From an uncultured bacterium (GTDB taxonomy: Bacteria > Patescibacteriota > Minisyncoccia > UBA6257 > 2-01-FULL-56-20): a stretch of DNA of 64,000 nucleotides. Below the pieces are notes generated by a model. It did no database searches, had not been told where the DNA came from, and saw nothing but the letters and a program-made list of their open reading frames with translations. Made by a program: the position numbers and the translations under genes. Positions within the stretch are counted from its first letter, which is position 1, and each line of letters starts with the position of its first letter. The stretch is from assembly GCA_963844965.1 (NCBI GenBank), contig CAWJQC010000008.1, forward strand, positions 92,185 through 156,184, read 5' to 3'. Shown here one piece after another: positions 3,927 through 56,718 of the stretch.

Positions 3927-4105
3927 CAATTTATTATAACAATAAATAATAGAGGCCGGATCAAGAATCCGGCCCTGGCACCGTGTGGGCTTGTTTGGCC
4001 AGACACAACACAACTCTATCCAAAAGCATCTTAGCTTTCGGTTCTTTCCCCTTCTTTGACTGGAAATCCGTTGAGTAAAGATTGAGAAAATTGCCAGGCC
4101 AGCCG

Positions 4106-11764: not shown

Positions 11765-12181
11765 TTAATAAACCCAGATTCCAATAGCAAGCAGGATAAT
11801 CCGCACGAGCATAAAGGCAATTAAGTGGAGCATATAAAATATACCCTTTTCGAACATATCAATGCCCCAAATTTTGAAACAGATAAGAATGACGGCGGAG
11901 TGGACGATAAGGTAAGAGAAACTGCCAATTATCCGGTTGACAGATGGAGGAAGGCCGTTGGATTGGCGCATCCTTCCGAAAGTCATTGCGGTAAAAACGA
12001 CAGAAACCAACACGAGGAAGATACCGATTACGATCGTTGGGATGAGGGGTGAAATAAACGATTGCCACAATTGCACGAAAGGCGCATCAAGGGCGTTAAA
12101 TATCGGCTGGAGCATTTGGGTCGCCGAGGCGACAGCGCTGGAGGAATACACTGGGAAGATAACCGGCGGTGTAGATGTCAT
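11765..12181 (-). CDS. hypothetical integral membrane protein
   Basis: 138 aa, 4 hydrophobic segments. Confidence 0.45.
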   Translation of the reverse strand: MTSTPPVIFPVYSSSAVASATQMLQPIFNALDAPFVQLWQSFISPLIPTIVIGIFLVLVSVVFTAMTFGRMRQSNGLPPSVNRIIGSFSYLIVHSAVILICFKIWGIDMFEKGIFYMLHLIAFMLVRIILLAIGIWVY

Positions 12182-12246
12182 CCCAGCAACATACAGCAGT
12201 TATGGCGGGCTGGTCAATTGGTGGCCGCGGGTTATATAATATCTTT

Positions 12247-13482
12247 AATGAAAATCGAGAGCCAAAAACTCAACGTAACCGAGGCGTTTAAAAACTTCTA
12301 TTACATCGTCCCGCCGTATCAGCGGGAGTATGTTTGGAAGGAGAGAAACGTTGCCCAGTTATTTAACGATATTTACGACGAATATACCAACGATAAAAAC
12401 TCCGAATACTTTATCGGCAGTATCGTCGTAAATAAGCGTGAGGATGGCACATACGAAGTGATCGACGGCCAACAGCGATTAACCACTTTATTTATTAGTC
12501 TTTGTGCGCTTAAACGTGTGTTCAAAAATTCCCAAGATCATTTAAGCGTTATAGAAAATCTGCTCACTTCCCCGACGACGAACGATAAAGGCGAAATCAT
12601 CCGCAGCTCCCATCTTGAACTGCAATATGAAGGCACAGCAGACATTTTACGCGATATTTTGAATGACAAGGAATTAAGCAAAAAAACGTCTGGTTCGGCA
12701 GAACACATCAAAGAAGCCCTCGAAACCATCCTCGAATACCTGAACGCAAACTTCAAAACAGAAAATGACCGAACGCGGTTTTATGGATATTTTATGCACA
12801 AGGTAAATTTTGTGCAGATTGAAACGCCGAGCGTGAGCGACGCTTTGAAAATTTTTGAAACGATCAATGAGCGCGGCGTTGGCCTGAATCCGATGGATTT
12901 GCTCAAAAATTTGATATTTCAGCAATTGCCACGCGACGAGTTTCAAAAGGTTAATGTCGAATGGAAGAAAATAACGAGGACGTTGGAAAAGAATGGGCAG
13001 AAGCCACTCCGCTTTTTACGCTACTTCATAATGGCCAACTATCAGGTCAAGGATACTAAAGACGTCGAGGTTGTGCGTGAGGACGAGATTTACGACTGGG
13101 TGGTAAGACACGCCGAGGTTTGCGGCTATAGGAAAGATCCATTCGGGTTTGTGGGAAAAATCGCCACAGATGCCGAAGCCTACGTTTCATTTTTCAACGG
13201 TATGACGCTGGAGGGCAAGAATAGCGTCGAATTGGAAAACATCAGGAGCTTGGGCGGCGGTGCATTCAGCCAACATTTAGTTATGCTGCTTGCGGCCAAA
13301 GAGTTGCCCGAAGACCTTTTTCTTCATCTCGTTCGACAGGTGGAAAGCTTATCTTTTACTACTTCATTACGAAAACTCCCGCGAAAGCACTGGAAGCCCG
13401 TTTTTCCCGATGGGCGGATGATTTGCGTGATGTAGCGGGCGATGCAGATCAAAAAGCCGCCCTCAATAAATTCATAATGTAA
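12247..13482 (+). CDS. DUF262 (ParB-like nuclease / GmrSD-BrxU N-terminal domain) protein, frameshifted near 13345 and ending inside the IS3 terminal repeat
   Basis: N-terminal YYIVPPYQREYVWK…VIDGQQRLTTLF is the DUF262 signature (DGQQR). The alternate frame after ~13350 reads …LIFYYFITKTPAKALEARFSRWADDLRDVAGDADQKAALNKFIM*. No DUF1524/HNH-like C-terminal domain is present. Confidence 0.7.
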
Positions 13483-13534
13483 AGGATAGGTTTCTTTAGA
13501 CAGTGATTCGACGGCTTTTTGCCGTTTTTTTTCG

Positions 13535-14317
13535 TTAAGCCGCAATCTTCTCGGCAAACACGGACGGCGGCATCTTGAGGGCGGAGTGGATCCGCGTGTG
13601 GTTGTACTGCCACAAGGTGCTGTAGATCTCCGCCACGAGCTCGCCGAAGGTCCCGAACCGGTTGGGATCACCGAGGTCAATCTTGAACTTGTCATAGAAC
13701 GATTCCTGGTAGCCGTTTTCCCATGGGGCACCGGGCCGCGACCGCGAGATCGTGATGCCACAGTCCCCCAGTGTATCGGTGAACGCTCGTGCCTTGTACT
13801 CGCTGCCGTTGTCCGAATGGAAGATGACCGGATGCGGATGGTGGAAAAGCGCGTTGGCCAGGGTCTGTATCGTGAGGGGCGATCCTTTCCGCAACGCCAC
13901 ATGGACGCCCATCAATCGTCTCGTGAAAAGATCGAGTATCGTGGACACGTACACTTTCTTGCCGCGATACAGGAACTCCGTGAAATCGGTTGCCCAGACG
14001 TGGTTCGCGTACGAGGGCATGATGGCAAGTAAGAGGTTCGGAAAGGCCCGCGATGCCTTTGATTTCCGGTATTTCCTGCCTCGCCTCCGGTACGGCCTTA
14101 TGCCGAAGATTCGCATGACGCGCTGCGCTCGCGGACGGCTCACGCCCAGAGCTTGTCCCAAGCGCCGGGAACCGTATGCCGGATGGCGCTGCAATTCTTC
14201 TTCCATGCGGATCTTGAGCGCCCAATCTTTCTTGTCCTGCCGTGATACGTAGTAGAGCGATGCCCGCGAGACGCCCATGGCCCGCGCCATGGCGGACTTG
14301 TTCCGCTTTTCCGTCAA
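13535..14317 (-). CDS. IS3-family transposase OrfB (DDE integrase core, rve domain), expressed as OrfAB fusion by -1 frameshift
   Basis: HSDNGSEYKARAF…ITISRSRPGAPWENGYQESF (DDE/rve). The -1 frame from the CCAAAAAAAG heptamer gives KELTEKRNKSAMARA, which continues OrfB. Confidence 0.8.
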   Translation of the reverse strand: MTEKRNKSAMARAMGVSRASLYYVSRQDKKDWALKIRMEEELQRHPAYGSRRLGQALGVSRPRAQRVMRIFGIRPYRRRGRKYRKSKASRAFPNLLLAIMPSYANHVWATDFTEFLYRGKKVYVSTILDLFTRRLMGVHVALRKGSPLTIQTLANALFHHPHPVIFHSDNGSEYKARAFTDTLGDCGITISRSRPGAPWENGYQESFYDKFKIDLGDPNRFGTFGELVAEIYSTLWQYNHTRIHSALKMPPSVFAEKIAA

Positions 14318-14577
14318 TTCTTTTTTTGGGCCTGGGAGAGCTTCACGGTGAGCTCGCCCACCACTTCAAACAGCTCCCTGTTCTGCTTCTGGAGACGGCT
14401 GAACTCGCCCCAGGAAGGGACGCCCGATGCTCCTGCGCCTAGCCAATTGTAGATGGTGGACTCGTGCAAACCGTGGTCCTTCGCAGCCTGCGCTACGGGG
14501 ACTCCTTCTTCCTTCACCCGGCGGAGGATGTCCGCCTTCACTTCCTTCGCAATCCGATGCCCTTTTTTGTTGCTCAT
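14314..14577 (-). CDS. IS3-family transposase OrfA (HTH)
   Basis: 87 aa, helix-turn-helix. Ends KLSQAQKKN* at the A7G slippery run (plus 14320-14328). Confidence 0.8.
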   Translation of the reverse strand: MSNKKGHRIAKEVKADILRRVKEEGVPVAQAAKDHGLHESTIYNWLGAGASGVPSWGEFSRLQKQNRELFEVVGELTVKLSQAQKKN

Positions 14578-14719
14578 GACACAATGGTAGTTTGTTTCGA
14601 CCTTTGTGTCTAAATTATCCTATCCGGGTCAGTTGAACTCAAAACAGTTTGCCATCAATGCGGATTATTGTTATAAACAAGGCAGCATGACGCCACCCAA
14701 AGCGAAACAAGGAGAGGGA

Positions 14720-17957: not shown

Positions 17958-18082
17958 CATGAATCCCGTTAGAAGCCACGGTCGCGTTGCGGAAAACACC
18001 TATCGGGATAAAAATAAGGATTGCGAATTATAAATATAACCATCAGCAGGCGCCGACCGCGACCTGCTTCTAACGGGATGAA
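17958..18082 (+). mobile_element. MITE-like element copy 3 (TIR TCCCGTTAGAAG / CTTCTAACGGG; 5-bp direct repeat ATGAA) between infC stop and rpmI start
   Basis: ATGAA-TCCCGTTAGAAG…(92 nt)…CTTCTAACGGG-ATGAA. The right ATG is the rpmI start codon. Confidence 0.6.
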
Positions 18083-21281: not shown

Positions 21282-21923
21282 CTATGGCAAAGTAATTCGC
21301 GGAGGCGACGATTTTCTCTCCATCCTCGAACCATCCAATTTCGGAAAAAGCATGAGAAGAAGTGAGGATGCGATCAAATTTAGAATTGCCGCCACGGCAA
21401 AAGTCGTTCTAAAGCCATAAGCATCGGCAATTATCCCGCCAATCGCGCCGCCGACGGCAGTGGAAACGGTCAGACCGAAAACGCTGAATATGCTCCACTC
21501 AACACCCTCGGAAACCTTGTCAACGTGATGCGCGAAGATCGTATAGTAAGCAGCCATAAGACAAGCATCGCCGACCCCGCAGACGGCTTCCATTACGTAT
21601 AACTGCCAGGTAAACTTTATGAACATTAAGGTTAAGGGATAAACAACGCCTATCGCGCAGCCCAAAAGCATCACGCGGAAATCGTCTTTTTCCCCGGATT
21701 TTCTGTCTATTCTTCTCGCAATCGGTATCTGGAGAATTGATTTCACTATCGCGTAGATGGCGATCGCGAAACCAGCCGTTCTTAGGCTCGCCCCGACGAG
21801 CGTGCCCGTGATGAAAACCGCGAAAAGCGGCGCGAAAAGTCCGCCGCTCGCGTTCAGGATAAACAGGAAAAAAAGCAGGAGTTCAATTACCCTATTTATG
21901 GAAATGTTCAGTTTTATTCTCAT
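21282..21923 (-). CDS. MFS-type transporter-like membrane protein (6 TM; possibly a half-size or truncated MFS)
   Basis: Hydrophobic 6-helix pattern. Start ATG (plus cat 21921-21923) lies inside the MITE-like repeat; the track N-terminal extension RPISNGM comes from that repeat. Confidence 0.45.
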   Translation of the reverse strand: MRIKLNISINRVIELLLFFLFILNASGGLFAPLFAVFITGTLVGASLRTAGFAIAIYAIVKSILQIPIARRIDRKSGEKDDFRVMLLGCAIGVVYPLTLMFIKFTWQLYVMEAVCGVGDACLMAAYYTIFAHHVDKVSEGVEWSIFSVFGLTVSTAVGGAIGGIIADAYGFRTTFAVAAILNLIASSLLLMLFPKLDGSRMERKSSPPRITLP

Positions 21924-22054
21924 CCCGTTAGAAATAGGGCGCAACGCCGCCGCTCGTCCTCTTTATTATTTAATATTCGGCCATTTTGTTGATGTAATAT
22001 CCGCAAAGCGTCCGCGCCTGCCTGCCGGCAGGCAGGATTTCTAACGGGACCCAT
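21919..22054 (-). mobile_element. MITE-like element copy 1 (TIR TCCCGTTAGAAAT; flanks ATGGG/ATGAG) between the clpB-like stop and the MFS start
   Basis: On the minus strand: ATGGG-TCCCGTTAGAAAT…ATTTCTAACGGG-ATGAG. Contains the 20-bp palindrome at 22017-22036. Confidence 0.6.
22017..22036. repeat. perfect 20-bp palindrome CCTGCCTGCCGGCAGGCAGG (copy 1 of 3)
   Basis: Identical at 31099-31118 and 38023-38042. Confidence 0.9.
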
Positions 22055-28444: not shown

Positions 28445-28519
28445 AAATTAAATTGGTGCCCCCGCGAGGAATTGAACCTCGACCACCTCCTTCGGAGGGA
28501 GATATTCTATCCGTTAAAC
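28445..28519 (-). tRNA. tRNA-Arg (anticodon CCG), CCA encoded
   Basis: Minus strand: GCCCCCG acceptor, anticodon stem TCTCC/GGAGG with loop CTCCGAA (anticodon CCG), T-arm CGAGG-TTCAATT-CCTCG, CGGGGGC-A-CCA. Confidence 0.85.
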
Positions 28520-28538
28520 TACGGGGGCTGGCTTTGAG

Positions 28539-30128: not shown

Positions 30129-30722
30129 TTATTTCTCCTTCTCCTCTTCTTCTATCAAGGTCACGACCTTGTCCAGAAGCTCCTCTGGATCACCCGAATA
30201 AACCACCTTGCCGCCGCCTTTGCGCGACTTCTCAATTATTTCCTTAATCATATCGCATACGCCACCCGTGCCGGTCAAAACCCCCTGTGGCTTCTGATCC
30301 TCAAAGCCGATGGTGAATTCGTTCAAGGTCCCCATGCGCCCGCAAATCGTGATAATCGCGTCCGCGGAACGCGTGAGAAGTAAATTGCGCCCGGAGTATT
30401 CAAAGCCGGTATAAACTATAAGATCGTGATAGTCGGTGGGCAAATGGTAAGAATTCACGTGAGCAAGTTTTGACGCCGCCGGAGAAAGTCCTATCACTAT
30501 CCCTCCGGCTTCCTTCGCGCCCTTCGCTGCCCAGTAAGGGATGCCTGTCGTCGCGCCGGTGACCAAAATCATATTGCGCTCGGCGATTAATTTGCCGAGC
30601 CTCTCGGCCTTCTCCACGGCGTCTTGCGAGCAAATATCGGTTTCGGCCGCTCCCGAAATGCAAATTTTATACTTAAGATGCTGTGTCCCCAATTTGGAAT
30701 GATTTGCCTTCATCTTTGGCAT
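30129..30722 (-). CDS. LOG/TIGR00725-family Rossmann-fold nucleotide-binding protein
   Basis: ISGAAETD…GGIVIGLSP…GRMGTLNEF resembles LOG (lysine decarboxylase-like) family proteins. Confidence 0.55.
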   Translation of the reverse strand: MPKMKANHSKLGTQHLKYKICISGAAETDICSQDAVEKAERLGKLIAERNMILVTGATTGIPYWAAKGAKEAGGIVIGLSPAASKLAHVNSYHLPTDYHDLIVYTGFEYSGRNLLLTRSADAIITICGRMGTLNEFTIGFEDQKPQGVLTGTGGVCDMIKEIIEKSRKGGGKVVYSGDPEELLDKVVTLIEEEEKEK

Positions 30723-30854
30723 GGTCTAAGTATAACAAATATAAAAAATAATTCGAGCGTTGAACACTCTATAACTTTCCAATTTCTGTCCGGCGCGACG
30801 CGAAGCTGGCCTTTTTCGTAGATGCGTCTTATGTGGTGCTCGCAAGATTTAAAA

Positions 30855-31134
30855 TGAACTACCGCCGCTTAAGAGCGGTGGTATTAGAACTGCCACGCCT
30901 CGCACGCAACCAGATTTTACATCACTTAGCATGCGGTAGTTCACCCCGCCCCCACTTTTACTTATGACACTTGCGATTCTTTTTCCGTGTTGATGGCACA
31001 AACCTATACATTTTTCTCCTGACGTTTTAAGTAAAAGTGAGGCGGGGTTTATGTTTTCCATTCCGCAATCCTGCCCCGCTCTACTGGCGGGGGGGTATTC
31101 CTGCCTGCCGGCAGGCAGGCTTGCGGGGAAAACA
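30855..31134. repeat. hairpin-dense noncoding block: three consecutive long imperfect stem-loops plus the 20-bp palindrome (candidate structured RNA or degenerate MITEs)
   Basis: Inverted-repeat pairs: 30855-30864 with 30932-30941; 30943-30960 with 31030-31046; 31050-31067 with 31120-31134. Inner hairpins at 30859-30880 and 31072-31092. Palindrome at 31099-31118. The 30849..31142 track ORF is probably spurious. Confidence 0.5.
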
Positions 31135-31143
31135 TAAAACAAA

Positions 31144-32525
31144 TTAAGTCAGTTCAACTTCTTCTCCTGCCTTCGGCACTTCGGCGAGAACCGCGAAGTC
31201 GTCCTTGATTTTAGTGGCCAAGGCCTCGCTTGCGCCTTCCTCGCCCTGCACGACGAAAACTTTTTTAAGCGTTCTGCGCATTGGTTCAAGCCATTTCAAA
31301 AGCAACGGCTGGTCGGCGTGCGCGGAATAACCGCCGATTACCACCTTCCTGCAACGAACGGGGACTTCTTCCCCGAAAATTTTTACAGAGGTGGCGCCGT
31401 CAAGAATCTGCCTGCCGAGCGAGCCCGCCGCCTGATATCCGACAAAGAGAATCGTATTTTTCTCCCCGGGAAGGTAGCGCAATTCGTGATGCAGGATCCT
31501 TCCACTGTGCGACATGCCGGAACCGGCGACAACGACTTTCGGCGGCGGCACGTCGTTGATTTCTTTGGATTGCTCCGTGGTAAGCGTGAGCCGCAAGCCG
31601 GGGAAATTCAGGATGTCATCGCCGGAATGCGCCAATTTTTCCGTTTCGGGATTGAAATAATTCTCGTATTTTTTATAAATCGCCGTAAGTTTTATGGCTA
31701 GCGGGCTGTCAATGAAAACCGGTACTCGCGGCACTCTTTTTTCCGTAAACAACTGGTGCAGGTGGTATAGAAGCTCCTGCGTGCGTTCCATCGCGAACGT
31801 CGGTATGAGCAGCACGCCCTTCCGCCTCACGGTGTCTTCAATCGCGTCCTCAAGCATTTCCCTGCGCTTGTCTATCCCCTCGTGAACCCTGTCACCGTAC
31901 GTGGACTCAATCAGACAATAGTCGGCAGAATTTATCTTTTCCGTCGGTTGAATTATCGGCGCGGGATAATTTCCGAGGTCACCGGAGAAAACAACCGTTT
32001 TCCCCTCGGCGATAACTTTTATTATGGCTGAACCCAGTATGTGTCCCGCGTCAAAAAGCTCAACCCGCCAGCCCGAGGCCGGTCCGCCTCCGGAGGAGAA
32101 ATTGCCGATACTCAACCGGCGTGTGGTAATCAAGTTTCCGCCACAATTTCATCAGTTCAAATATATCCTGCGTAGTGTAGAGCAACGGTTTTTTCTCCCG
32201 TTCCGCTTCCTGGGCCAATATGTGCTCCGAATCTAAAAGCAAAAGTTCTGCGAAGTCTTTTTGTCGCGGGCGTGGAATAAACCGTTCCGCGGAAACCATC
32301 TTTCCAAAGTTTGGGTAAAAGACCTATGTGGTCAATGTGCGAATGGGTTATGAAAACCGCCTCTACGTTCTTGGGATCGTAAGGAAACGGTTCAAAATTT
32401 CTGCGCTCGGCATAATGGCCTCCCTGGTGAAGTCCGCAATCAATCATAATCTTTTTCCCACCCGACTCAAGAATATAGTTGGCGCCGGTAACCTCGCCGA
32501 CGCCACCATAGAAAGTTAAACGCAT
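31144..32525 (-). CDS. rnj: ribonuclease J-like (metallo-beta-lactamase / beta-CASP / RMMBL) protein, split by two frameshifts (about 32290 in an A5 run, and about 32110)
   Basis: HxHxDH motif (ITHSHIDHIGLLPKL) in frame A; KDFAELLLLDSEHI… in frame B; beta-CASP/RMMBL body (…VVAGSGMSHSGRILHH…GGYSAHAD…) in frame C. Confidence 0.75.
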
Positions 32526-33898: not shown

Positions 33899-34466
33899 TC
33901 AGAATCTTAAGCGCAGCCTTCAACCGTTCTTCCAAATTAACAATTTTCTCGTCAACTTTTCCGAGCGCTGCCTTGGCCTGTTCGCGGCGGTAGCCCAAGC
34001 CGACGAGCGTCTCAACGAGGTCAGCGTCAACCTCCATTTTGCCCACGGCAATCTCGGATTTTTCTGATTGTACTTTGCTCTTCAATTCCAGAATAATCCG
34101 CTCGGCCGTTTTCCTGCCGATCCCCGACGCGCGCGTGAGCAAATCCGGTCGCCCCTCTTTGATGGCTGCCGCCAAATTTTTCAGCTCGGCAACTTCCATT
34201 ATAGACAACGCCGACTTCGGCCCCACGCCGGAAACGGAAATCAATAGCTCAAAAAAGTTCAATTCGGCTTCCGTCAGAAATCCGTAGAGTTCCAGTCCGT
34301 CCTCGCGCATATGCAAATGACAGAAAAATTTAACGGCCAAGCCAATGGGTGGTAAAGCACCCAGCGTGCGACCGCTTACAAAAACCTTGAGCCCCAATCC
34401 AGCCGCGTCCACAACCGCGAAGTGTTCGCTCTTTGACATCAGTTTGCCCGAGACGCTGTAGAGCAT
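33885..34466 (-). CDS. ruvA: Holliday junction branch migration protein RuvA
   Basis: …LYGFLTEAELNFFELLISVSGVGPKSALSIM… are RuvA HhH motifs. Confidence 0.85.
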   Translation of the reverse strand: MLYSVSGKLMSKSEHFAVVDAAGLGLKVFVSGRTLGALPPIGLAVKFFCHLHMREDGLELYGFLTEAELNFFELLISVSGVGPKSALSIMEVAELKNLAAAIKEGRPDLLTRASGIGRKTAERIILELKSKVQSEKSEIAVGKMEVDADLVETLVGLGYRREQAKAALGKVDEKIVNLEERLKAALKILSGKV

Positions 34467-34622
34467 ACCCAGTAGAGGAATTTCGAATTATAACTTTCGG
34501 CTTTCTCGACTAAGCCGTTGACTTGTTCCCGTTGCGCTGATGGTGAAATTGTCCATAAAATAGGTGTTCGGCAGTAGGCGTTCGAAATTCTCCTACTGGG
34601 CATAATTCAATTATACGGCTAC

Positions 34623-37364: not shown

Positions 37365-38155
37365 TTAGGACAAAAATAAGATGACCTTCCGCCAATTTTT
37401 ATTTTCTTTATTTTAGCACAGCACCGAAAACATTTCTCACCCTCGCGATCATAGACCTTACGGGAATCCTGGTAATAACCCGAACTGCCGTCGGTCCGGC
37501 GGTAATCACGCAGCGTAAAACCGCCCTTTTTGATGGCTTCGCGGAGAATTTCCTTGATTGAACGCACCAAACGCACGATTTCCCGACTCTTTAGCGCGCC
37601 ACTCCGTCGCATTGGGTGGATTTTGGCTGTCCATAGGCTCTCATCCGCGTAAATATTGCCCAATCCGGCGACGAGCCGCTGGTCAAGTAGTGCCGATTTT
37701 ATCAGCTTTTTCCTGCCATACAGCAATTCACCCAGCTTTTTAGCATTAAAATCCTTTGAAAGCGGCTCTACTCCCGGTTGCGGAAGCGATTGCGCATCGG
37801 TTTGCCACTCAATCGTGCCGAAACGCCGGGCGTCAACGAACCGCAAAACCGAACCGTCGGAAAAATAAAATCTCGCCCGTTCGTGCGGCATCCTTTCCGG
37901 GCCTAGCCGCATTTGCCCGGTCATGCGGAGGTGGATAATGCAACGTAAACCATTCTCAAAGCTAAGGATTATAAATTTCCCGCGGCGGCGCACAGAAACG
38001 ATTTCCAGCGGCAAAACAAAGCCCTGCCTGCCGGCAGGCAGGCGCGGCTTCCCGATTTTCTTCACGTCAAAAACCGCAAACTTAATCAATTTTTTGCCGA
38101 CCAAGATGTGCGAGAGCTCGCGCGTTATGGTCTCAACTTCCGGAAGTTCGGGCAT
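37346..38155 (-). CDS. mutM: formamidopyrimidine-DNA glycosylase (Fpg/MutM); carries the 20-bp palindrome in-frame (…KPRLPAGRQGF…)
   Basis: MPELPEVE N-terminus (Pro2 active site) and a C-terminal zinc finger (CFRCCAKI…CPKC). Confidence 0.85.
   Translation of the reverse strand: MPELPEVETITRELSHILVGKKLIKFAVFDVKKIGKPRLPAGRQGFVLPLEIVSVRRRGKFIILSFENGLRCIIHLRMTGQMRLGPERMPHERARFYFSDGSVLRFVDARRFGTIEWQTDAQSLPQPGVEPLSKDFNAKKLGELLYGRKKLIKSALLDQRLVAGLGNIYADESLWTAKIHPMRRSGALKSREIVRLVRSIKEILREAIKKGGFTLRDYRRTDGSSGYYQDSRKVYDREGEKCFRCCAKIKKIKIGGRSSYFCPKCQKEK
38023..38042. repeat. perfect 20-bp palindrome CCTGCCTGCCGGCAGGCAGG (copy 3, inside the fpg coding region)
   Basis: Identical to 22017-22036 and 31099-31118. 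Confidence 0.9.
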
Positions 38156-39629: not shown

Positions 39630-42151
39630 TCATAATTTTTCCATATTCCCCCAGTCCTTCCCGCAGGAAACGTTCACCACAAGCGGCACTTTCAGGGTGT
39701 ATATTTTTTCCATTGTGCCTCCAATCAGCTCTGCAGTTTCTCTTATCTTATCATCGCGGACCTCGAACAGCAATTCATCGTGAATAGAGAGAATCAATCG
39801 CGCGCCAGCGCCCCAAATCCCGGCCTCTTCCAAAACCTTACGCGATCTAATCATTGACATTTTTATAATATCGGCGCCAAATCCTTGGATTGGAAAATTT
39901 ATCGCCGCCCGCTCCGCTTCGGAGACCAAGCGCGGCGAATCCGTGGCTGCACCGAAGAGATAGCGCCTCCGGCCGGTCGGCGTCCGCGCGAAACCGGAAG
40001 TTCTAACTTCACTTTTTATTTTCTCCTGCCAAACTTTTATCTGCGAAAATGCCTTAAAATACGCAGTGATGAATTCGCGTGCTTTTTCTGTTGTGAGGCC
40101 GCTCGTCCTTGCGAAAGACGGCGCCCCCATGCCATAGATCAGCCCGAAATTAAGTGTCTTCGCGAGACGCCGCTCAGCTGGACCGACCTTTTCAAGCGGA
40201 ATTCCAAAGACGCGCGAAGCGGTGACTTTATGGATATCCAGTCCCCTCTCAAAAGCTTTTATCATCTGCGAATCACCGGTAAGCGAGGCGAGGATGCGAA
40301 GTTCAATTTGGGAATAGTCAAAAGCGAGAAACGAAGAATCCCTTCGGCGCCTCAAAGGCCGCCCGCAGTTCCTTGGTCCAGATCGATTCCTGGGGAATGT
40401 TCTGCAAATTCGGCGTCTGCGAACTCAATCTGCCAGTAGCCGTTCCCGTCTGCACGAATTCCGTGTGAAGCCGTTTACCGGCTGAGAGTTCCAAAAGCGG
40501 GCGCGCGTATGTGGATAAAATCTTGAAATTCTCGCGATAATCCAAGAATCAAACCGACTATCTCGTGCGCCCCGCGCAATTCTTCCAAATTAGCCGCGCG
40601 CGTTGTGCGCATCCCGGTCTTCGTCCTCCGGACGCCATCACCGAGCCCCAGCTTGTCAAAGATAATCTCGCCGACTTTCTTGGGCGAATTGATGTTAAAT
40701 TCTTCTCCGGCAGCCGCGTAAATTTCTTTCGCGAGGCCGTCTAATTTTTTCGTGATTTTTTCTTCAAGCGTCGTGAGTTTCTCCAGCGAAATCAAAATGC
40801 CGTGGCTTTCCATTTCCGCCAAAATTCGCAGAAGCGGCATTTCAATTTCCTCAAAGACTTTAGCAAGGCCATACTCATTGATTTTTCTCGCGGCAAAATC
40901 ATACGCGTACTTCAAGTCGGCAATGTCACCTCTCCACTCTTTGTTAAAAAATTTCTTGAATACCGCCGGCGGCGCGTATTGCTTGAAATCCGGGTCAATC
41001 ATCCAGAAAGCGACGCCTAGGTCAAAGTACGGCGCGCTTAAATCTTTGCCTTGCCTCCATAGATTTTTGAGCGTTTTTTTCAGATCAAAACCGACTTTGG
41101 GTTTTGAAGAAAGATAAGCCGCAGAATATGCCTCGCCGTCTCTTATAAAAATAACTTCTTGTTTTTCGGCATTTTGCGCGACGGCTGAGCCGACTTCCGG
41201 CATGGGAAAAATCCGGCCCTGCTCGCCCCGTTTGCGGCGGACCATTGGGGCTGGCGTTTCCTTTCCCGGCTCGGGGACGTGCACCTCCATTCCACCCTCC
41301 AATCTCTTGAGTAGTGTCTCAAAACCGAGTTTTCGGAAATATGTTTTTATCGGGGAATAATTTTCTTCAATTTTCAGTTCATCAATGTTTTTTACCTCAA
41401 GCGGCACCCCCCGGTTGAGAATCACGAGGCTTCTCGCCAGTTCCGCTTCCTTCCTAAATTGACCCAATTTTTTCTCCAGCTTCGAATCGGCTGCCAAATT
41501 TTTATACGCGTTTTCAAGCGTCCCGAAGCGCTGAAGTAGTTCGGCGGCGGTCTTCGGACCGATCCCAGGAACGCCTTTTATGTTGTCGGATGTGTCGCCA
41601 ACGAGCGCTTTGTAATCAATAAGTTGCGGCGGCCGAAGGCCATAGCGTTCGCGCACGGCCTCTTCATCGTAGAGCATCGTCTCGCTCACGCCTTTTTTGA
41701 AGGTCCTCACCAAAATTTTTCCGTTCTCCACGAGCTGGAGAGTGTCCAGGTCACCGGTAAGTATTATAACTTTAATATCTTTTTCCTTGCTGAATTTCAC
41801 GGCGAGCGTCGCGATCAAATCGTCGGCTTCGTAGCCGGGAATTTCAAAAGTTTTTATGCCGAAGACGGAAAAAGATACGTGAGCATCGGCAAGCTGCGGC
41901 ACGAGATTGTCCGGCGTCGCCGGCCGCTGTGCTTTATACTCGGCATATTCTTTCTCGCGGAATGTCTGCTCCGGCCTGTCAAAAAGCGCCGCGACGTAGT
42001 CCGGTTTATCCTCGCGCCAAAGCTTAAGCAAGATGCTCGCTAAGCCGTAAATCGCATTTATCGGCCTACCGTCCAGGGTCGTGAGCGGCGGCAAAGCATG
42101 AAAGGAACGATGAATTATGGAGTTAGCGTCTATTAAAAGAAGGGTTTCCAC
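39630..42151 (-). CDS. polA: DNA polymerase I, split into three ORFs by two frameshifts (about 40475-40545 and about 40318-40355)
   Basis: 40475..42151 is the 5'-3' exonuclease domain (…GYEADDLIATLA…) plus the N-terminal part of the polymerase. 40318..40545 and 39630..40355 carry motif A (DYSQIELR), motif B (RRLAKTLNFGLIYG) and motif C (ILSIHDELLFEV). Confidence 0.85.
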
Positions 42152-45670: not shown

Positions 45671-47363
45671 TTAATCTGTCTGCTGTTTCCACTCTATCCT
45701 GCCGGTAACCGACTCCACTTCGTCAAAACTCGTTAAACCCTGAAGGACCTTCAGAATTCCGTCGGCTTGCATGCTCACCATTTCCTGGGAGTCCGCGAAT
45801 TTTTTCAGGGCCACCTCCGATGCCTCTTTCAGTATCACTTCTTCCAAGGCAATGCCTCCCTCCAAAAATTCGTACACTCCCACGCGGCCGCGGTAGCCGA
45901 GGCCGCTGCATTTCGCGCAACCGACTGGTTCGTAAACATTTATTTTCTCATATGCGGCCTGGTTCACCCGTTTCGGTAAATTATCCAAAAATTTTTGTAT
46001 CTTGGCTCGGAAGCCACCGTCCAACGCTTTCGCCTTCTTGCATTCGGCACAAAGGCGCCGCACGAGACGCTGGGCGATAATCAAATTGAGCGCCGGCCCG
46101 ATACTCACGGCTTTCACGCCCAAATTTATCAGGCGTGGGACGGCACCGACGGCATCATTCGTGTGAAGCGTTGAGAGGACCAGGTGGCCGGTAAGCGAGG
46201 CTTGAAGCGCAATATCCGCAGTATCCAAATCCCTGATCTCACCTACGAGAATTATGTCCGGGTCCTGACGCACGACCGCCCGCAACCCCTTCGCGAACGT
46301 ATAGCCGGCCTCGGAATCAACCTGCGTCTGTTCTATGCCCGGAATCCTGTACTCTATTGGATCTTCAAGGGTTATTATTTTTATTTCGGGGCTGTTAACC
46401 CTCTTCAAAAACGCGTAAAGGGTGGTGGTTTTCCCGGAGCCGGTGGGACCAGTGTTTAAAATAAGGCCGTTGGGCTTTTCTATTTGGCGATTTACAATAA
46501 CGAGGATCGTCTTCCCTTATGCCCAGCCCGCCGAGGTCAATCGCGATAACATCCGGGTCCAGGATCCGCAGGACAATGGTCTCGCCGAATTCCGCCGGTA
46601 TAACCGAGGCGCGAATTTCTATTTCCTTTTGCCCGAAACCTATCGTGAACCGACCGTCCTGTGACTCGCCTTTTATATTTATCTTCATTCCGGAGAGAAG
46701 CTTGAGGCGCGAAACCAAGGACTCGTAATTCTTAAGCGGCAACTCCTCGAAAATATCGTGCAACAAGCCGTCAACTCTGTAGCGCATGCGCGCGTTTTTC
46801 TCCCCGGCCTCAAAATGTATGTCGGACGCCTTAAGACCCATGGCGCCGGCCAGGACAACCTCGATAAGAGTGACCGGGGTCGTCTTTGTAAAATCCAATT
46901 TTCCTATTTCGCTTTTTACCGCGGAGAAATTAACGAGTATCGCGGAGAGTTCTTCAAGCCGCTTTTTTTCGATTTTCACCTTGCCGGTAATCTCTTCCGC
47001 CTCCGGTTTGACAAATTTATAAAAGCGCCAGGCGTCGCCGAGTCCCGAAAGTGACGTGACGAACGTTTTTACCTCGTATTTTTTATTTTCCAGGTCTTTG
47101 ATAATTTTTTGCACCGCGGGCGCGCGGGGATCGGCGGCGGCTAAAGCCACTCTCCTGACCTTGACCTCAATCGTTGCGACCCTCGCGCCGCGCGCCACAT
47201 CTTCCAGAACAAGTTTTAACGCGTCCGTGGAAACGGGGGTCTTGGATAAATCCACATAAGGAAACCCTGCGTCACTAGCCAAACGTTGCGCCGCCCGCTC
47301 CTCGCCTTCGCGGTGGAGAACGGTAAGTTTACTTTGCAGAACGGATGGCTTTTGAGGATCCAT
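45671..47363 (-). CDS. GspE/PilB-family secretion ATPase (type II/IV pilus assembly), split by one frameshift near 46500
   Basis: N-terminal GspII_E_N-like domain (…DAGFPYVDL…). The alternate frame supplies NTGPTGSGKTTTLYAFLKRVNSPE (Walker A). The C-part has the tetracysteine motif CAECKK…CAKC. Start ATG (plus cat 47361-47363) is inside MITE-like copy 2. Confidence 0.8.
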
Positions 47364-47483
47364 CCCGTTAGAAATAGGACGCGGATAAAGCCACCGCGCC
47401 ATTTTTAATTTTTTGTAGTGCTCTGACCATTTACAATGATTCTTCTATTTTGCAACGCATCCGCAATTTCTAACGGGATCCAT
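47359..47483 (-). mobile_element. MITE-like element copy 2 (TIR ATCCCGTTAGAAAT; perfect 5-bp direct repeat TCCAT/ATGGA) at the gspE/pilB start codon
   Basis: On the minus strand: ATGGA-TCCCGTTAGAAAT…ATTTCTAACGGG-ATGGA. Confidence 0.65.
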
Positions 47484-50826: not shown

Positions 50827-53251
50827 ATGGCGATTGTCAAAAAAATAATTTTGATTATATTCATAATCGGCGCCGTAGGCACGGCAACCTCTGTTTTGGC
50901 ATATTTTTATTTTGCTAGAGATCTTCCTACTATGGAGCAGATAAAAGACAGGCAAATAAGTCAATCTACAAAAATCTACGATAAGACGGGAACGGTGCTT
51001 TTGTACCAAATAAGCGGCTCGGAGGACAGGACCATCGTCCCATTCGAAAGCATCCCGCAGAATTTGAAGGACGCAACCATTGCTATTGAGGATAAAAATT
51101 TTTACAACGAACCCGGATTCTCGTGGAGCGGCTATCTGCGAGCCTTTATCACGAACCTCGTTCACGGGCAAATACTACAAGGCGGTTCAACAATTACCCA
51201 ACAGTTGGCAAGGAACACCTTCCTCACGACGGACCAAACCGTTACCAGAAAAATCAAAGAGCTCATACTGGCCATAAGAACTGAACCGCTACTATACCAA
51301 AGACCAGATACTTGCGCTCTACCTCAACGATATCCCGTACGGCCCTACCGCCTACGGAGTGGAGGAGGCCAGCCAAGAATATTTCAACAAATCCGCGCGG
51401 GATTTGAACCTCGCCGAAAGCGCCACGCTTGCCGCGATTCCCAAAGCCCCAACTTACTATTACCCCTGGGGAAATCACGTGAGCGACCTCATAAGCCGCG
51501 AGAAACTGGTCCTGGAAAAAATGCTTGAACTCGGGAAAATCACACAGAAGGAATACGACGGAGCGGTGAAATATAAAATCGTTTTCGCGCCGCAGGGGAA
51601 AGAAATAAAAGCCCCGCATTTCGTGATGGCTGTTCAGGATTACCTTGCGCAAAAATATGGTGAGGATATGGTGCGTGAGGGTGGCCTTCGCGTCGTGACT
51701 ACTCTTGACTGGAATCTTCAGCAGATCGCAGAAAAAGCGGTCGCCGACGGTGCCGCGCAGAACGAATCCCTCTACCAAGGAAAAAACGCGGCGCTCGTCG
51801 CCGAAGACGCGAAGACCGGCCAGATACTCGCCCTGGTCGGTTCGCGCGACTATTTTGACACGAAAAACGACGGTAATTTTGATGTCGCAACACAAGGATT
51901 ACGCCAGCCGGGTTCTTCCCTAAAACCATTCGTTTACCTCACGGCGTTCGAAAAAGGGTACACTCCCGACACCGTTGTCTTTGACGTGCCGACCGAATTC
52001 GCGGCTAACAATCCCGTCTGCCCGCCGAATCCCGATTACAAAAACGACAATCCGCAATGCTTCCATCCAGAAAATTTTGACGGCCAATTCCGCGGACCGG
52101 TGACCCTAAGGCAAGCCCTTGCTCAATCTATAAACGTCCCCTCGGTAAAAGTTCTTTACCTTGCCAGCTTGAACGATTCGGTGAAGAACGCCTACAACTT
52201 CAGCCTGACGACGCTCACCAACCCGAACCTCTACGGTTTGTCGCTGGTTTTAGGAGGAGGAGCTGTTAAATTAATTGACCTGGTCGGAGCCTATTCGGCT
52301 CTTGCCCAGGACGGCATCAAGCATGCACAGTCGATGATACTGGAGGTTAGTGACGCCACAGGGAACACGTTGGAGTCTTATCAGGACGAGAACACCAAAG
52401 TCTCCGATCCACAACCAATAAGATTGGTCAACAACATCCTCTCCGACGCGGAAGCGCGCAGTGGGCTTTTTCAAAACAGTTTAGACCTCACCGTCTTTCC
52501 GGATCACGATGTGGCGCTCAAAACTGGGACATCCAACGACTACCGTGACGCCTGGGCCATCGGCTATACTCCCTCGCTCGTTGTCGGCGTCTGGGCCGGA
52601 AACAACGACAACTCTCCGATGCAGCGTCATGGTTCAAGTATTCTGGCCGCCGTCCCGATATGGCACGCTTTCATGGCCGAAGCCATAAAGAATCTGCCGC
52701 TTGAAACATTCAATCGTCCCGACCCAACTAACCCGCAAAAGCCGATCTTAGCCGGAAATTACCTGTACAACAAACAGATTCATACAATCCTTTATTATGT
52801 TGACAAGACGGACCCCGAAGGCCCGCCCCCGACAAATCCATTCAACGATTCCCAGTTCGTGAACTGGGAATACGGAGTTCTCGCGTGGGCCAAAGATAAT
52901 CTTCCCGACTTTTCTAGCTATAACCAGTCAATAACCACAACAAACCAGGCGACAAGCACGTCCGTAAATATCCCGCCAAAGATTGAAATAAAAAACCCTG
53001 TGGTCGGTAGTTTTATAAGCGGCCCGATAAATATCAACGCCGCAATCACGGCTTCCGCTCCGATTGCTAAAATAAGGGTCTATTTCAACAACCAACTCGT
53101 CGACGATTCAGGTCTTAGTGGTAGTTTAAACTACAATTTTAACTGGTCGTTCACGCCCCGAGACACACAACCGCAAAATTTGATCCAAGTGGAAGTAGTA
53201 GACCAAAACAACATTTCAACGCGCGAGGGAGTAATTGTATATGGCCAGTAG
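50827..53251 (+). CDS. class A penicillin-binding protein (transglycosylase + transpeptidase), split by a frameshift near 51290-51320
   Basis: GT51 motifs EDKNFY and GGSTITQQLA in ORF 50827... The transpeptidase body (…SLKPFVY…KTGT…) is in 51359..53251, and its frame continues upstream as TKDQILALYLNDIPYG. Confidence 0.85.
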
Positions 53252-53266
53252 CCGATTCTAAATTCG

Positions 53267-54380
53267 TCAACTGTTCGCTATGGGTTTCAGAATATAAAGA
53301 TACGAATTATCGTTGGGTGATTTTATAAGAGCTGGTTCGCTGTCGCTTGTGATCCCCAAAAATACTTCTTCCGCTTTCAGGATTTTAATAACGTCGGCCA
53401 AATATCTCCAGTTAAAAATAGTTTTATTTGGTTTTCCTTGAATTTTCGCCGGCAACAGATATTTATTCTCACCAATAACCTGGTCAGACGATTCAACCTC
53501 TAGGACTTTTTTATTTTCCTGGATATTAAGGGTTGTCTCGCTGCTCCTTGTCCCAAAAATGCCGGCTAACTTCAGAGCTTCGGTAAATTCCTGTTTATTG
53601 ATTATGATTTCCGCGCCGAACTTTCTGGGTATTATCGCATTATAATCGGGGAAGTTTCCTTCGATCAGGCGCGAAAGGAATTCTAATTGCTCGGTTTTAA
53701 ATAATATTTGATTACTATCGTGGTAAATCCTGACGATATTCATTATTATTCAGGATTCTTATAAGTTCTTGAGTTGTTTTTAAAGGAATAAGAACTCTGA
53801 AATTTTCCTTGGAATTAGCGGTAAATTCTGAAGAGTTTATTGTCTTCTCAGCTAATCTAAAGCTGTCGGTTGCGGCTAATTTAATATTATTCACCGAAAA
53901 TTCAAACAAAACACTATTTAACTCCGGTCTCAAATCGGAGAATTGAGAGGCGACAAGTACTTGATTAAGTGCTTCTCTGAATATTTCTGTTTTTATTTCT
54001 ATATATTCTTCGTTATTTTTTATCTTCGGAGTTATAGGAAAATCATCAGCCGCAAGACCGTGGACCGAAGCGTTATAATTATCGGTTTTTATTTCCAATT
54101 TATTTCCCCTTTTTTCTATATTTAATCTTTCGCTTTGAATATTATTTATCAGATTATAAATCACACTTATCGGCACGGTGAACTTTCCGTTTTCAATAAT
54201 TTTGCCTGATATATTACAACTTATTGCAATTTCTAAATTAGTAGTTGTTAGTCTTATTTTATTATTCTCAACCTCAAAGAGAACGTTTTTTAATATCGGC
54301 AAATTCAGATTGTCTCCGGCTCCTCGTTCGGTCACCGCAAGGCCGTCCTTTAGGTTTGTTTTAATAACTATAAATTTCAT
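53267..54380 (-). CDS. dnaN: DNA polymerase III beta sliding clamp, split by a frameshift near 53715-53745
   Basis: N-terminal MKFIVIKTNLKDGLAVTERGAG… is typical of DnaN. The C-part is in ORF 53267..53743. Confidence 0.8.
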
Positions 54381-54501
54381 TTATTTATATTAATACTTAT
54401 TGTTGTAGTTATTTTTATTATTATACTGTTAGTTGTGTGAATAAGTAAATAAACTTTAATTTACAGTTTCAATTTTTAATTTCTTTTTTGTTCATATCTT
54501 G

Positions 54502-55863
54502 TTATGAACTTTTATAAATCATCTCTTTTATCATTAAGATCTTCTGATTTAAATTTGAATTCCTGTTGACTTCCTGATTTATTTTTTCGTAGGAATGTAT
54601 GGCTGTTGTGTGGTCTCTGCCCATTTTATCCCCAATATACGGATACGACAACTCCAAGATATCCCGAAGAAGATACATTGCTATCTGTCTCGGCTCTACT
54701 ATTTCCTTCTTTCTATTATGACTTACGAGACTTTCTATTGAGATATTAAAGAATTCGGCTACCGATTTTAAAACCTGGCCATCGTTTACGTGCTTAGCAA
54801 GCGTCTGTATTGATTTTTCTATTATTTCTCCGGCTATCTTTTCCGTCACTTCAACCTGCTTTCTTTCTTTGTAGAATAATATTTTCTTTAAAACTCCTTC
54901 TAATTCTCTTATGTTTTTCTTGACTTTTTTGGCTATTAGATCAATAACCGCGTCGCTTAGTTCACTATTTGCCTCTTGAAGTTTACTTTTTATAATAGCG
55001 ACGCGCATTTCATATTCCGGATATATGATATCCGCCACCAAACCTCCTTCAAATCTGGACCTCAGCCGCTCTTGAAGTGTTGGTATGGATTGCGGCGGCC
55101 TATCTGAAGATATAATAATTTGTTTGTTCATCTCGTATAAAGCATTGAAAGTATGAAAAAATTCTTCTTCGGTTTTTTCTTTTCCTCCGATGAATTGGAT
55201 GTCATCAATAATTAGAACGTCAACATCTCTGTATTTTTTCTTAATATCTTCCATCCGTTTGTTCCTTATAGCCCAAACAATATCGCTCGTAAACCTTTCC
55301 GACGGTACGTATCGCGGCTTTATTTTGTTTTGGAAGTTCGCGCGCACTTCGTTCCCTATCGCCTGGATAAGATGGGTTTTACCAAGACCAACGCCTCCAT
55401 ATACGAAGAACGGGTTGTATTTCGTTCCGATTTCTTTGGCGACGGCCGAAGCAGCCGCGAACGCCAATTCGTTTGATGGGCCGACAATGAACGAGTCTAG
55501 GGTGTAGCGCGGATTCAGATTGGTTTCCGGATCTACTTTGAAATCCAGATCAATAGCGTTTTCAGCGCCCGCCTGATTTAACATCGCCACCTTCTTGTTA
55601 GAGGTATCGGGTTCGCGGCTATCAACCATAAATTCAAGTTTTTTGGCAGAGTTGTCGAAGTTTCTCAGAATTCCGAGGATGTTTTTTTGATATTTATTCT
55701 CAACCCACTCTTTCGCAAAGTTATTCGGTAGGGAGACATAGAAAACCCCATCTCTTTTATCTACCAGGCGGCTGTTTTTGAGCCAGGTGGCGAAATTGGC
55801 CCTCGATAATTGGACTTCTATCTCTCCTAAGGTTGTCTGCCAGAGCTGGTTCAGGTCGTCCAT
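54502..55863 (-). CDS. dnaA: chromosomal replication initiator protein DnaA
   Basis: Start MDDLNQLWQTTL; GVGLGKTHLIQAIGNE Walker A; a C-terminal DNA-binding domain. Confidence 0.9.
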   Translation of the reverse strand: MDDLNQLWQTTLGEIEVQLSRANFATWLKNSRLVDKRDGVFYVSLPNNFAKEWVENKYQKNILGILRNFDNSAKKLEFMVDSREPDTSNKKVAMLNQAGAENAIDLDFKVDPETNLNPRYTLDSFIVGPSNELAFAAASAVAKEIGTKYNPFFVYGGVGLGKTHLIQAIGNEVRANFQNKIKPRYVPSERFTSDIVWAIRNKRMEDIKKKYRDVDVLIIDDIQFIGGKEKTEEEFFHTFNALYEMNKQIIISSDRPPQSIPTLQERLRSRFEGGLVADIIYPEYEMRVAIIKSKLQEANSELSDAVIDLIAKKVKKNIRELEGVLKKILFYKERKQVEVTEKIAGEIIEKSIQTLAKHVNDGQVLKSVAEFFNISIESLVSHNRKKEIVEPRQIAMYLLRDILELSYPYIGDKMGRDHTTAIHSYEKINQEVNRNSNLNQKILMIKEMIYKSS

Positions 55864-56051
55864 GAAAATTTTGTTAATTCGTTTAGAAAGTTTATACCAC
55901 CAAACCCACAACAAAACAATATCAGTCTAATTCTATTTTTAATTCCGTTGTAATTGAAGAGCTTGGATATCACAATTTGGGGATTAACTGTTAATAACTT
56001 TTTTAATATATATACTACCACGGTTAATGACAATTCAAAAATAGTATGTTA
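55864..56051. promoter_or_regulatory. putative oriC / dnaA-rpmH divergent control region (AT-rich, DnaA-box-like 9-mers)
   Basis: ATATCACAA and TTATCCTAA(rc)-like boxes. Conserved rpmH-rnpA-yidC-jag / dnaA-dnaN synteny. Confidence 0.4.
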
Positions 56052-56186
56052 GGATAACGGAATGTCGGTTACATACCAGCCCAAAAAGAGAAAACGGCGC
56101 CGAACGCATGGTTTCAGGACGAGACAAAGGACCAGCGGCGGACGGAACGTTTTGAGCCGCCGGAGACAAAAAGGCAGGCGCAGACT
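56052..56186 (+). CDS. rpmH: 50S ribosomal protein L34
   Basis: [44 protein letters not shown]; not in the ORF track (44 aa). Confidence 0.85.
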
Positions 56187-56306
56187 GATAGTTTGACGCC
56201 GCTGGCCGTCGTCTGCCCGGGCACCGATCGGATTGTCGTCAGGTATGTTTAGCGGCAGTTCGATGGGGTTCGGTAAGGATTTTGGCGGCTGGTGGTGATT
56301 TGCGCG

Positions 56307-56648
56307 ATGCTCGCGAAGAAATTTCGTTTGCCGCTTGCAAAAAAAACCACAGGATTTAGGCGATTGTATTCCTCGCCGTATTTTTTGATAAAATTAAGTG
56401 AAAACAGCGAGGGATATAATAGATTCGGAATCATAGTTCCGGCAAGCGCAGTCAGGAAATCTGCACGGAGACATTTCTGGAAGCGTCAGATAACAGAATG
56501 TTTCAGGCGCTGGCCGAATTTTAAAAAAGATTTTTTAGTGATAGTTTCTCCGAAAATAGAAAGCGCTGACAAAAAAATTATAAAATTGGAACTTGAAAGG
56601 GCGGAGAAGGCACTTAGCAATCAAATTAATCAGTCATTAAATTATTAA
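56307..56648 (+). CDS. rnpA: ribonuclease P protein component
   Basis: …FGIIVPASAVRKSARRHFWKRQITECFR… is the RnpA RNR-motif region (alternative GTG start 56292). Confidence 0.8.
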   Translation: MLAKKFRLPLAKKTTGFRRLYSSPYFLIKLSENSEGYNRFGIIVPASAVRKSARRHFWKRQITECFRRWPNFKKDFLVIVSPKIESADKKIIKLELERAEKALSNQINQSLNY

Positions 56649-56718
56649 ATCATCGGGCGCGAGTTGTTCGCACACAATAATTCAAACAGCTTATTACTCA
56701 TTAACCGATAAAAGTTAA

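Follow-up and report, generated by a model that had tools for sequence, protein, structure and literature searches.

Three abutting hairpins in an intergenic spacer of a Patescibacteria genome, and the widespread 20-bp palindrome inserted in one of them

Bacterial intergenic DNA contains several kinds of palindromic repeat, among them the miniature inverted-repeat transposable elements (MITEs) and their kin, such as the Correia elements of Neisseria, the BOX and RUP elements of pneumococci, and the ERIC sequences of enterobacteria. Repetitive extragenic palindromic (REP) sequences are units of 20–40 nt that are highly repeated and share a common family consensus; their clusters, including bacterial interspersed mosaic elements (BIMEs), are mobilized by REP-associated tyrosine transposases (RAYTs). 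The Rickettsia palindromic elements (RPEs) are about 100–150 bp in length and confined to one genus, and free-standing GIY-YIG homing endonuclease genes are exemplified by the seg genes of phage T4, of which SegB lies in a tRNA cluster. The subject of this study is a block of three hairpins, designated H1, H2, and H3, located in the 421-nt spacer between genes for a beta-CASP nuclease and a LOG-like protein, together with a perfect 20-bp palindrome, designated PAL, carried by one of the hairpins. The spacer lies in a 64,000-nt stretch (hereafter, the window) of contig CAWJQC010000008.1 from an uncultured member of the Patescibacteriota (assembly GCA_963844965.1). The favored interpretation, to which a probability of roughly 0.55 is assigned, is that selfish or neutral palindromic DNA has accreted in a rapidly evolving spacer to form the block, which is not an RNA gene.

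Both genes that bound the spacer are read from the minus strand, the beta-CASP metallo-beta-lactamase nuclease (31144–32525) lying upstream and the LOG-like protein of the TIGR00725 family (30129–30722) downstream. The three hairpins follow one another without intervening nucleotides and together occupy positions 30855–31138 (284 nt); their arms are unrelated among the three, and neither the hairpins nor PAL are assigned to a strand. H3 (31048–31138, 91 nt), which begins 6 nt past the beta-CASP stop codon (31144–31146), has perfect 12-bp outer arms (TTTATGTTTTCC/GGAAAACATAAA), inner arms of 13 nt (CCGCAA.../...TTGCGG), and an inner GC hairpin at about 31076–31093. H2 (30944–31047, 104 nt) is bounded by the terminal inverted repeats CCCCGCC-CC-CACTTTTACTTA and TAAGTAAAAGTG-A-GGCGGGG, in which 7 and 12 perfect base pairs are split by a CC/A asymmetry, and these enclose an AT-rich, essentially unpaired interior of 63 nt. 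H1 (30855–30943, 89 nt) is delimited by inverted repeats that pair perfectly over 11 bp (TGAACTACCGC/GCGGTAGTTCA), is followed by TTTT on the minus strand, and has a loop that is largely unpaired. The inverted-repeat interiors in the block measure 63–67 bp (about 65). The inner GC hairpin of H1 (30861–30882, ACCGCCGCTTAAGAGCGGTGGT), which likewise has no assigned strand, was recognized by a terminator scan as terminator-like on the minus strand, where its stem is followed by AGTTCATTTT. Beyond the block, the minus strand continues through an unstructured stretch without a homologue in relatives (30770–30854) to a small terminator-like hairpin (30745–30769, GAGTGTTCAACGCTC, then GAATTATTTT; hairpin itself 30769–30755), which lies just upstream of the LOG promoter. 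The extended -10 element of this promoter (30729–30737, minus strand, TGTTATACT) stops 6 nt short of the ATG at 30722.

The hairpins of the block are real and far above chance. Compared with shuffled sequences, the whole block folds with z-scores of -5.1 on the plus strand and -5.6 on the minus strand (-150 kcal/mol for the latter), and the individual hairpins, both strands counted, range from -2.8 to -7.5 (-4.0 and -2.8 for H1, -4.6 and -4.3 for H2, -7.5 and -6.8 for H3). H3 ranks second for GC-corrected stability among the 100-nt windows of the 64 kb. The window contains 17 perfect inverted repeats that are 11 bp or longer and separated by 20–150 nt, whereas first-order Markov simulations give 2.4 +/- 1.4, and 3 of the 17 fall inside the 284-nt block. 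By contrast with the block, positions 30750–30854 are no more stably folded than shuffled sequence (z +1.8 and 0.1). An initial annotation, made by eye from the sequence, is borne out in its description of three consecutive long stem-loops, which measure 89, 104, and 91 nt where it gave about 87, 104, and 85, and in its placing here of two inner GC hairpins (30861–30882 and about 31076–31093) and one copy of the 20-bp palindrome (31100–31119). Its arm lengths of 10, 17–18, and 15 bp were slightly off, the measured values being 11, 7 + 12, and 12 (outer) bp, although the overall picture was right. The region that it called a 420-nt hairpin-dense block is dense at 30855–31138; the remainder is unstructured spacer followed by the LOG promoter. 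It judged the open reading frame (ORF) at 30849–31142 implausible; this ORF (minus strand, TTG start, 97 amino acids) has no homologue among 5.8 billion proteins at E<=10.

PAL (CCTGCCTGCCGGCAGGCAGG) is situated in the 3' arm of H3 at 31100–31119, and when it is removed and the remainder refolded, a coherent 71-nt hairpin results (z -6.3 and -6.7). The same 20 bp occurs three times in the window, where no copy is expected by chance. A second copy (22017–22036) is intergenic and abuts one arm of a TCCCGTTAGAAAT inverted-repeat pair, and a third (38023–38042) lies in frame inside fpg/mutM; as for the first, no strand applies. The fpg copy is a clean insertion of seven codons (PAGRQGF), consisting of PAL plus 1 nt, which is missing in the alignment from 13 of the 13 closest homologues. 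Because H3 is coherent without it, because the fpg insertion is clean, and because an intact tRNA-Met carries it at another locus (described below), PAL is an insertional element, and it is the youngest, demonstrable layer of accretion in the spacer.

Comparison with relatives bears on the rest of the block. Four relatives (L001, L124, L125/L126, and L127), with LOG proteins 76–86% identical to the one here, retain the gene order Mur ligase, beta-CASP, LOG, small ORF, amino-acid transporter. The beta-CASP and LOG genes lie 105, 103, 44, and 80 nt apart in these relatives, respectively, against 421 nt here; H1–H3 were not found in the spacer of any of the four, and every relative bears its own short, different hairpin. 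The alignable part of the spacer is limited to the last ~25 nt, the promoter-proximal TTATnT..TATAMT..ACC-ATG. Because the spacers of the relatives measure only 44–105 nt and all lack H1–H3, the block is regarded as a lineage-specific addition of about 300–380 nt. In the LOG-like gene and its orthologues (L001, L124, and L125), the TATAMT box is followed by the ATG after only 6–7 nt and a Shine-Dalgarno sequence is absent, a layout shared by ruvA elsewhere in the window. The short distance from TATAMT to ATG suggests that the LOG-like gene has a leaderless-type mRNA.

A history that would account for these observations begins with an ancestral spacer of 44–105 nt, containing one small terminator hairpin and a -10 box 6–7 nt before the LOG start. 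In this lineage, two MITE-like units, H1 and H2, with perfect terminal inverted repeats and ~65-nt unpaired interiors, would have been added, along with one full-length 71-nt palindrome, H3, which would have received the 20-bp PAL in its 3' arm as the last layer. H1–H3 may have arrived by insertion of mobile palindromes or of palindromes generated by template switching. That the window holds other mobile DNA, namely an IS3-family insertion sequence (IS), and other long inverted repeats favors accretion as the explanation. Since no good internal -10 hexamer was seen and the block directly follows a stop codon, its transcription is probably confined to read-through from the beta-CASP gene, whose mRNA would carry it as a 3' untranslated tail. 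In this position its stem-loops might slow exonucleases as an incidental function, and termination might occur either at the inner hairpin of H1 with its U-run or at the small hairpin 30755–30769. The terminator scan found 3 sites against 1.2 expected in shuffles; the minus-strand sites at 30879–30861 (followed by UUUU) and 30769–30755 fit loosely, and H2 and H3 have no U-run.

Similarity of the block to MITE-type repeats is considerable. H1 (89 nt) and H2 (104 nt) are small and non-coding and possess terminal inverted repeats, and like MITEs, which may be ~90–105 nt in length, they have such repeats around a non-palindromic interior and form long hairpins on either strand. MITE-type repeats also resemble the block in being intergenic, often right past a stop codon, and in their variable presence between lineages. 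The block differs from MITEs in that no second copy, target-site duplication, or cognate transposase was found in the DNA searched and in being composed of three different abutting units. REP/BIME clusters resemble it as abutting imperfect palindromes downstream of genes that serve as incidental mRNA 3' stabilizers or terminators. Unlike REPs, H1–H3 are 71–104 nt in length and mutually unrelated, and no RAYT gene was seen in the window. The initial annotation had offered nested degenerate MITEs as one label; nesting is evident for PAL in H3 and the termini of H1 and H2 are TIR-like (terminal inverted repeat-like), while neither a second copy nor a target-site duplication was found in the DNA searched. 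The anatomy of H1 and H2 is MITE-like, but they are at most candidate members of a repeat family. Copy number and target duplication are defining features of MITE and REP families; with no target duplication seen and a single copy in the DNA searched, the block cannot be assigned to such a family.

Several observations weigh against accretion of mobile palindromes. Searches with blastn-short found no other copy of H1, H2, or H3 in the 64-kb window or in 1.2 Mb of loci (123, then 163 loci), all matches of the block elsewhere being 8–17 nt long and at chance level. A gapped-pattern search of JGI metagenomes with the H2 arms gave a single match (L128), which is unrelated and AT-rich, and gapped patterns of the H1, H2, and H3 arms and of the H1 inner hairpin matched nothing in IMG/VR. 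Direct reading of the flanks revealed no target-site duplication at the borders of H1, H2, H3, or the whole block; the sole candidate for a direct repeat, TATAACAAAT/TAAAACAAAT, matches at 9 of 10 positions and lies in AT-rich DNA, its two halves separated by 395 nt. Independent random insertions would not be expected to leave three different hairpins in exact abutment. The closest relative available shares only 86% LOG identity, and absence from relatives is still compatible with a young, lineage-specific RNA function. Finally, assembly frameshifts in essential genes indicate that small details of the stems, such as single bulges, may be sequencing errors. The possibility that the stems are copies of a repeat family found elsewhere is only partly supported: PAL recurs, and H1–H3 have no copies in the DNA that was searched. 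A search for further copies with the 97-residue ORF as the protein query also returned nothing at E<=10, and comparison of the block with 47 tRNA genes by blastn-short gave chance matches only.

Other identities for the block were considered and set aside. The inverted repeats of the IS3-family element (TGTCTAAA..CCTATCC) are unrelated to the arms of H1–H3, which disfavors an IS3-derived MITE; the block lacks the direct repeats of a TIGR or CRISPR-like array; and dnaA and the switch in GC skew, which would mark a replication origin, sit near 55–56 kb. A proposed identity of the H1 arm GCGGTAGTTCA with the 5' part of E. coli tRNA-Asp was supported by no test and was dropped.

Three further classes of explanation invoke RNA function, site-specific recombination, or faulty assembly. 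It is unlikely, if by some way the best of these, that the three stem-loops form a selected cis-acting RNA structure, the 3' untranslated region (UTR) of the beta-CASP mRNA, which would stabilize the mRNA, halt or insulate transcription ahead of the LOG promoter, or be a substrate through which the nuclease regulates its own gene. The start of the block 6 nt past the stop codon, on the transcribed strand of both genes, agrees with this role, as do the stable minus-strand fold (-150 kcal/mol, z -5.6), the two minus-strand terminator-like sites (30879–30861 and 30769–30755), and the presence of a small, different hairpin in the spacer of the relatives. However, 44–105 nt suffice in those relatives, U-runs are absent from H2 and H3, stability is symmetric between the strands, and H2 and most of H1 consist of 11–20-bp arms around ~65-nt unpaired loops rather than extended RNA helices. 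Selection on such a 3' UTR and selfish or neutral accretion are not mutually exclusive. One or more independent small RNA genes, belonging to a family that Rfam does not yet include, are considerably less probable, despite the strong folding z-scores and the thin representation of Patescibacteria in RNA family libraries. Rfam 15, searched at gathering thresholds across the whole window, returned nothing in the block and only a tRNA at 28457–28528. When the threshold was relaxed to E<=10 over 30600–31300, only eukaryotic miRNA, lncRNA, and snoRNA models appeared, far under their cut-offs (the best, mir-4436, with 25 bits against a cut-off of 74), and these matches are chance ones of a kind generic to long hairpins. 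ARAGORN found no tRNA or tmRNA in the block, in line with the earlier by-eye failure to see RNase P, SRP, or tmRNA signatures, for which Rfam was likewise empty. A sigma-70 scan found no promoter in the region, and inspection by eye revealed no -10 hexamer of quality inside the block, the best candidate, TATACA in the loop of H2 (plus strand), being poor. No similar sequence exists in the 1.2 Mb of loci or the scanned collections. Because the syntenic spacer of the four relatives lacks the hairpins, it also provides no sequence in which covariation could be counted. The mismatches in the stems single out neither strand: the inner hairpin of H1 contains a G.U pair on the plus strand and A.C on the minus strand, whereas H2 has U.G on the minus strand and the CC/A loop on the plus strand. 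H2 closes better on the minus strand, and fold stability is equal on both strands. Equal stability together with mismatches that are inconsistent as to strand fits DNA palindromes better than RNA under selection. An independent structured RNA, which the initial annotation had put forward as a candidate, is thus not supported, given the empty Rfam search, the want of a good internal promoter hexamer, and the absence of the hairpins from four syntenic relatives.

The two remaining explanations are both highly improbable. In one, each inverted-repeat pair would be an inverton, that is, a site at which a recombinase flips the ~65-nt interior; the repeats are indeed perfect over 11–12 bp, and other inverted-repeat pairs of the window, including three with identical arms, lie just upstream of genes. 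Yet recombinase synapsis would be difficult across interiors as short as 63–67 bp, annotation of the window's ORFs revealed the IS3 transposase but no invertase or tyrosine recombinase, the interiors contain no convincing promoter, and the LOG gene possesses its own conserved promoter outside the block. In the other, fold-back or chimeric reads would have produced the inverted repeats during assembly. Uncorrected indel errors are indeed suggested by the 64 kb, where six or more conserved genes contain frameshifts, but the arms are short (11–20 bp) and the loops unique, unlike those of fold-back chimeras, the flanking genes and synteny are intact, and exact copies of PAL are present in assemblies that were produced independently and by different technologies, among them those of cultured isolates.

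Accretion of palindromic DNA remains the preferred interpretation, and its most informative component is PAL, which extends well beyond this genome. A census limited to exact matches recovered PAL in at least 120 stretches of species-representative genomes, against a back-of-envelope chance expectation of ~0.5 for a given 20-mer. The matches listed span many classes of Patescibacteria as well as Bacteroidota, Omnitrophota, Planctomycetota, Gamma- and Deltaproteobacteria, Bdellovibrionales, Nitrospirota, and Chloroflexi, and the Bacteroidota that carry PAL include cultured Winogradskyella, Flagellimonas, Longitalea, and Flavivirga. Viral contigs of IMG/VR contain 35 PAL stretches and none of a mirrored palindrome of equal composition; likewise, the PAL-bearing loci contain 42 near-copies with 1–3 mismatches against 0 for the control. 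The PAL-bearing loci are L004–L123 and L129–L163. Flanks are unrelated from locus to locus. Full-text literature searches with the PAL sequence and its substrings found nothing relevant, and searches on GIY-YIG nucleases with tRNAs and palindromes and on MITEs of Patescibacteria turned up no account of such an element. In one viral contig (L162, positions 3916–4125), a 21-nt unit resembling PAL (CATGCCTACCGGCAGGCAGG and one further nucleotide) is repeated in tandem at least 10 times and may encode a repeat of seven residues.

The positions occupied by PAL indicate that its presence is tolerated within genes. About 20% of the copies lie inside stop-free stretches of at least 200 codons. At L153, PAL is found in the variable loop of an intact tRNA-Met, which ARAGORN calls with and without the insert, and at L018, L040, L088, L102, and L160 it occupies the 3' boundary of a tRNA D-loop, and no duplication accompanies it. 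Direct repeats flank a minority of copies, exact 7-bp repeats being present in four cases against 0.03 expected, and longer ones were noticed by eye around PAL in viral contigs. PAL is nested in itself at L021 and L045. These properties recall the RPEs, which are also selfish palindromes found between genes and, without destroying them, inside protein genes (in frame) and RNA genes; the fpg copy, a palindromic in-frame insertion in a conserved gene that is absent from orthologues, is of the RPE type. PAL differs from the RPEs in its length of 20 bp, which is 5–7 times smaller, and in its identity across many phyla and viral contigs, so that in both size and confinement to a genus it departs from what defines them.

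A recurrent association may bear on how PAL moves. At L040, L063, L109, L121, and L160, PAL lies 16–42 nt upstream of an ORF for a GIY-YIG nuclease of ~80–90 amino acids; a PAL variant occupies the same position upstream of a GIY-YIG ORF at L080, and GIY-YIG remnants occur within about 150 nt of PAL at L013 and L042. In the tRNA cases, the order is a duplicated 5' part of the tRNA with PAL, the GIY-YIG ORF, and the intact tRNA, and at L121 the unit of PAL and GIY-YIG gene sits between 15-nt direct repeats. The seg-type genes are similar in being small GIY-YIG ORFs by or in tRNA genes, with part of the target duplicated. They differ from the ORFs at PAL loci, which are ~80–90 amino acids long and comprise the nuclease domain only, and any causal link between nuclease and palindrome is conjectural. 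No GIY-YIG ORF is present in the 64-kb window, and most PAL copies, including the three here, have none in their vicinity. A different GC-rich palindrome, CCCGCCCGTACCGAACGGGTACGTTCGGGCGGG, occurs at about 880–930 of L042, at the D-loop position of a duplicated 5' fragment of tRNA-Val and beside the GIY-YIG remnant; the arrangement of a palindrome in an old tRNA copy is therefore not unique to PAL. A tentative proposal, which is more apt to fail than to hold in its entirety, is that PAL is an undescribed, ultra-small insertional element of at least eight bacterial phyla and of viral contigs, which inserts precisely and often without target duplication at stem-loop junctions (the D- and variable loops of tRNAs, and H3) and in frame in genes (fpg). 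It may be mobilized in trans by small, structure-specific GIY-YIG nucleases. On this view, the spacer would be a natural sink for structure-targeted insertion.

The genes around the block and the remainder of the window provide its genomic setting. The beta-CASP protein contains Lactamase_B, Beta-Casp, and RMMBL domains and scores far higher on aCPSF1 and Cas14 models than on RNase J1, under every NCBIfam cut-off; the name rnj given to the gene initially is accordingly imprecise. The gene is broken into two frames near 32140 by a frameshift in this assembly. The homologues of the LOG-like protein come nearly all from metagenome-assembled genomes of Patescibacteria/Paceibacteria. At least six conserved genes within the 64 kb are interrupted, each being divided between two ORFs that lie in different frames, namely those for serine hydroxymethyltransferase (SHMT, 4537–5776), the beta-CASP nuclease (31144–32525), DNA polymerase I (PolA, 39630–42151), PilB (45671–47402), a class A penicillin-binding protein (PBP1, 50827–53251), and dnaN (53267–54380); these splits are probably assembly indel errors and not pseudogenes. 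The IS3-family IS (13484–14625), with orfA at 14314–14577 and orfB, which has an rve domain, at 13535–14317, is bounded by 19-nt imperfect inverted repeats and adjoins a GmrSD-type restriction gene (12062–13435).

Other inverted repeats of the window form a distinct group. Three pairs, at 17963–18079, 21923–22049, and 47362–47479, have common arms, TCCCGTTAGAA(A/G)(T/C), lying 89–101 nt apart around unrelated interiors. On the minus (coding) strand, the 3' arm ends 0–4 nt before the ATG of three different genes: one of unknown function, one for a major facilitator superfamily (MFS) transporter, and one for PilB. The arm motif was not found in any of the loci searched. These pairs could represent a shared hairpin that is regulatory or opposes ribosome binding (an anti-RBS hairpin), or else a recombinase site. 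Upstream of ruvA (34465–34603), 23-nt inverted repeats occur 93 nt apart, the 3' arm ending in the ruvA ATG and the 5' arm opening with another ATG directly past a TATAAT box, and this layout matches that of the TCCCGTTAGAA family. The dnaA gene (54502–55914, minus strand) and dnaN adjoin a stretch of 36% GC, and GC skew flips sign at about 56 kb; positions 54000–56700 are probably the chromosomal replication origin.

Should the block have the origin favored here, a Patescibacteria genome, of the type usually called streamlined, tolerates and gathers selfish hairpin DNA in a spacer, and the block serves as a warning to annotators against calling such stretches small RNAs or ORFs. PAL is the more valuable lead than the block itself. 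It can sit in tRNA genes and enzymes without destroying them and is common to distant phyla and viruses, and, because it is repeatedly found just upstream of tiny GIY-YIG genes, its mechanism can be approached by experiment. If truly mobile, PAL would be among the smallest insertional elements known.

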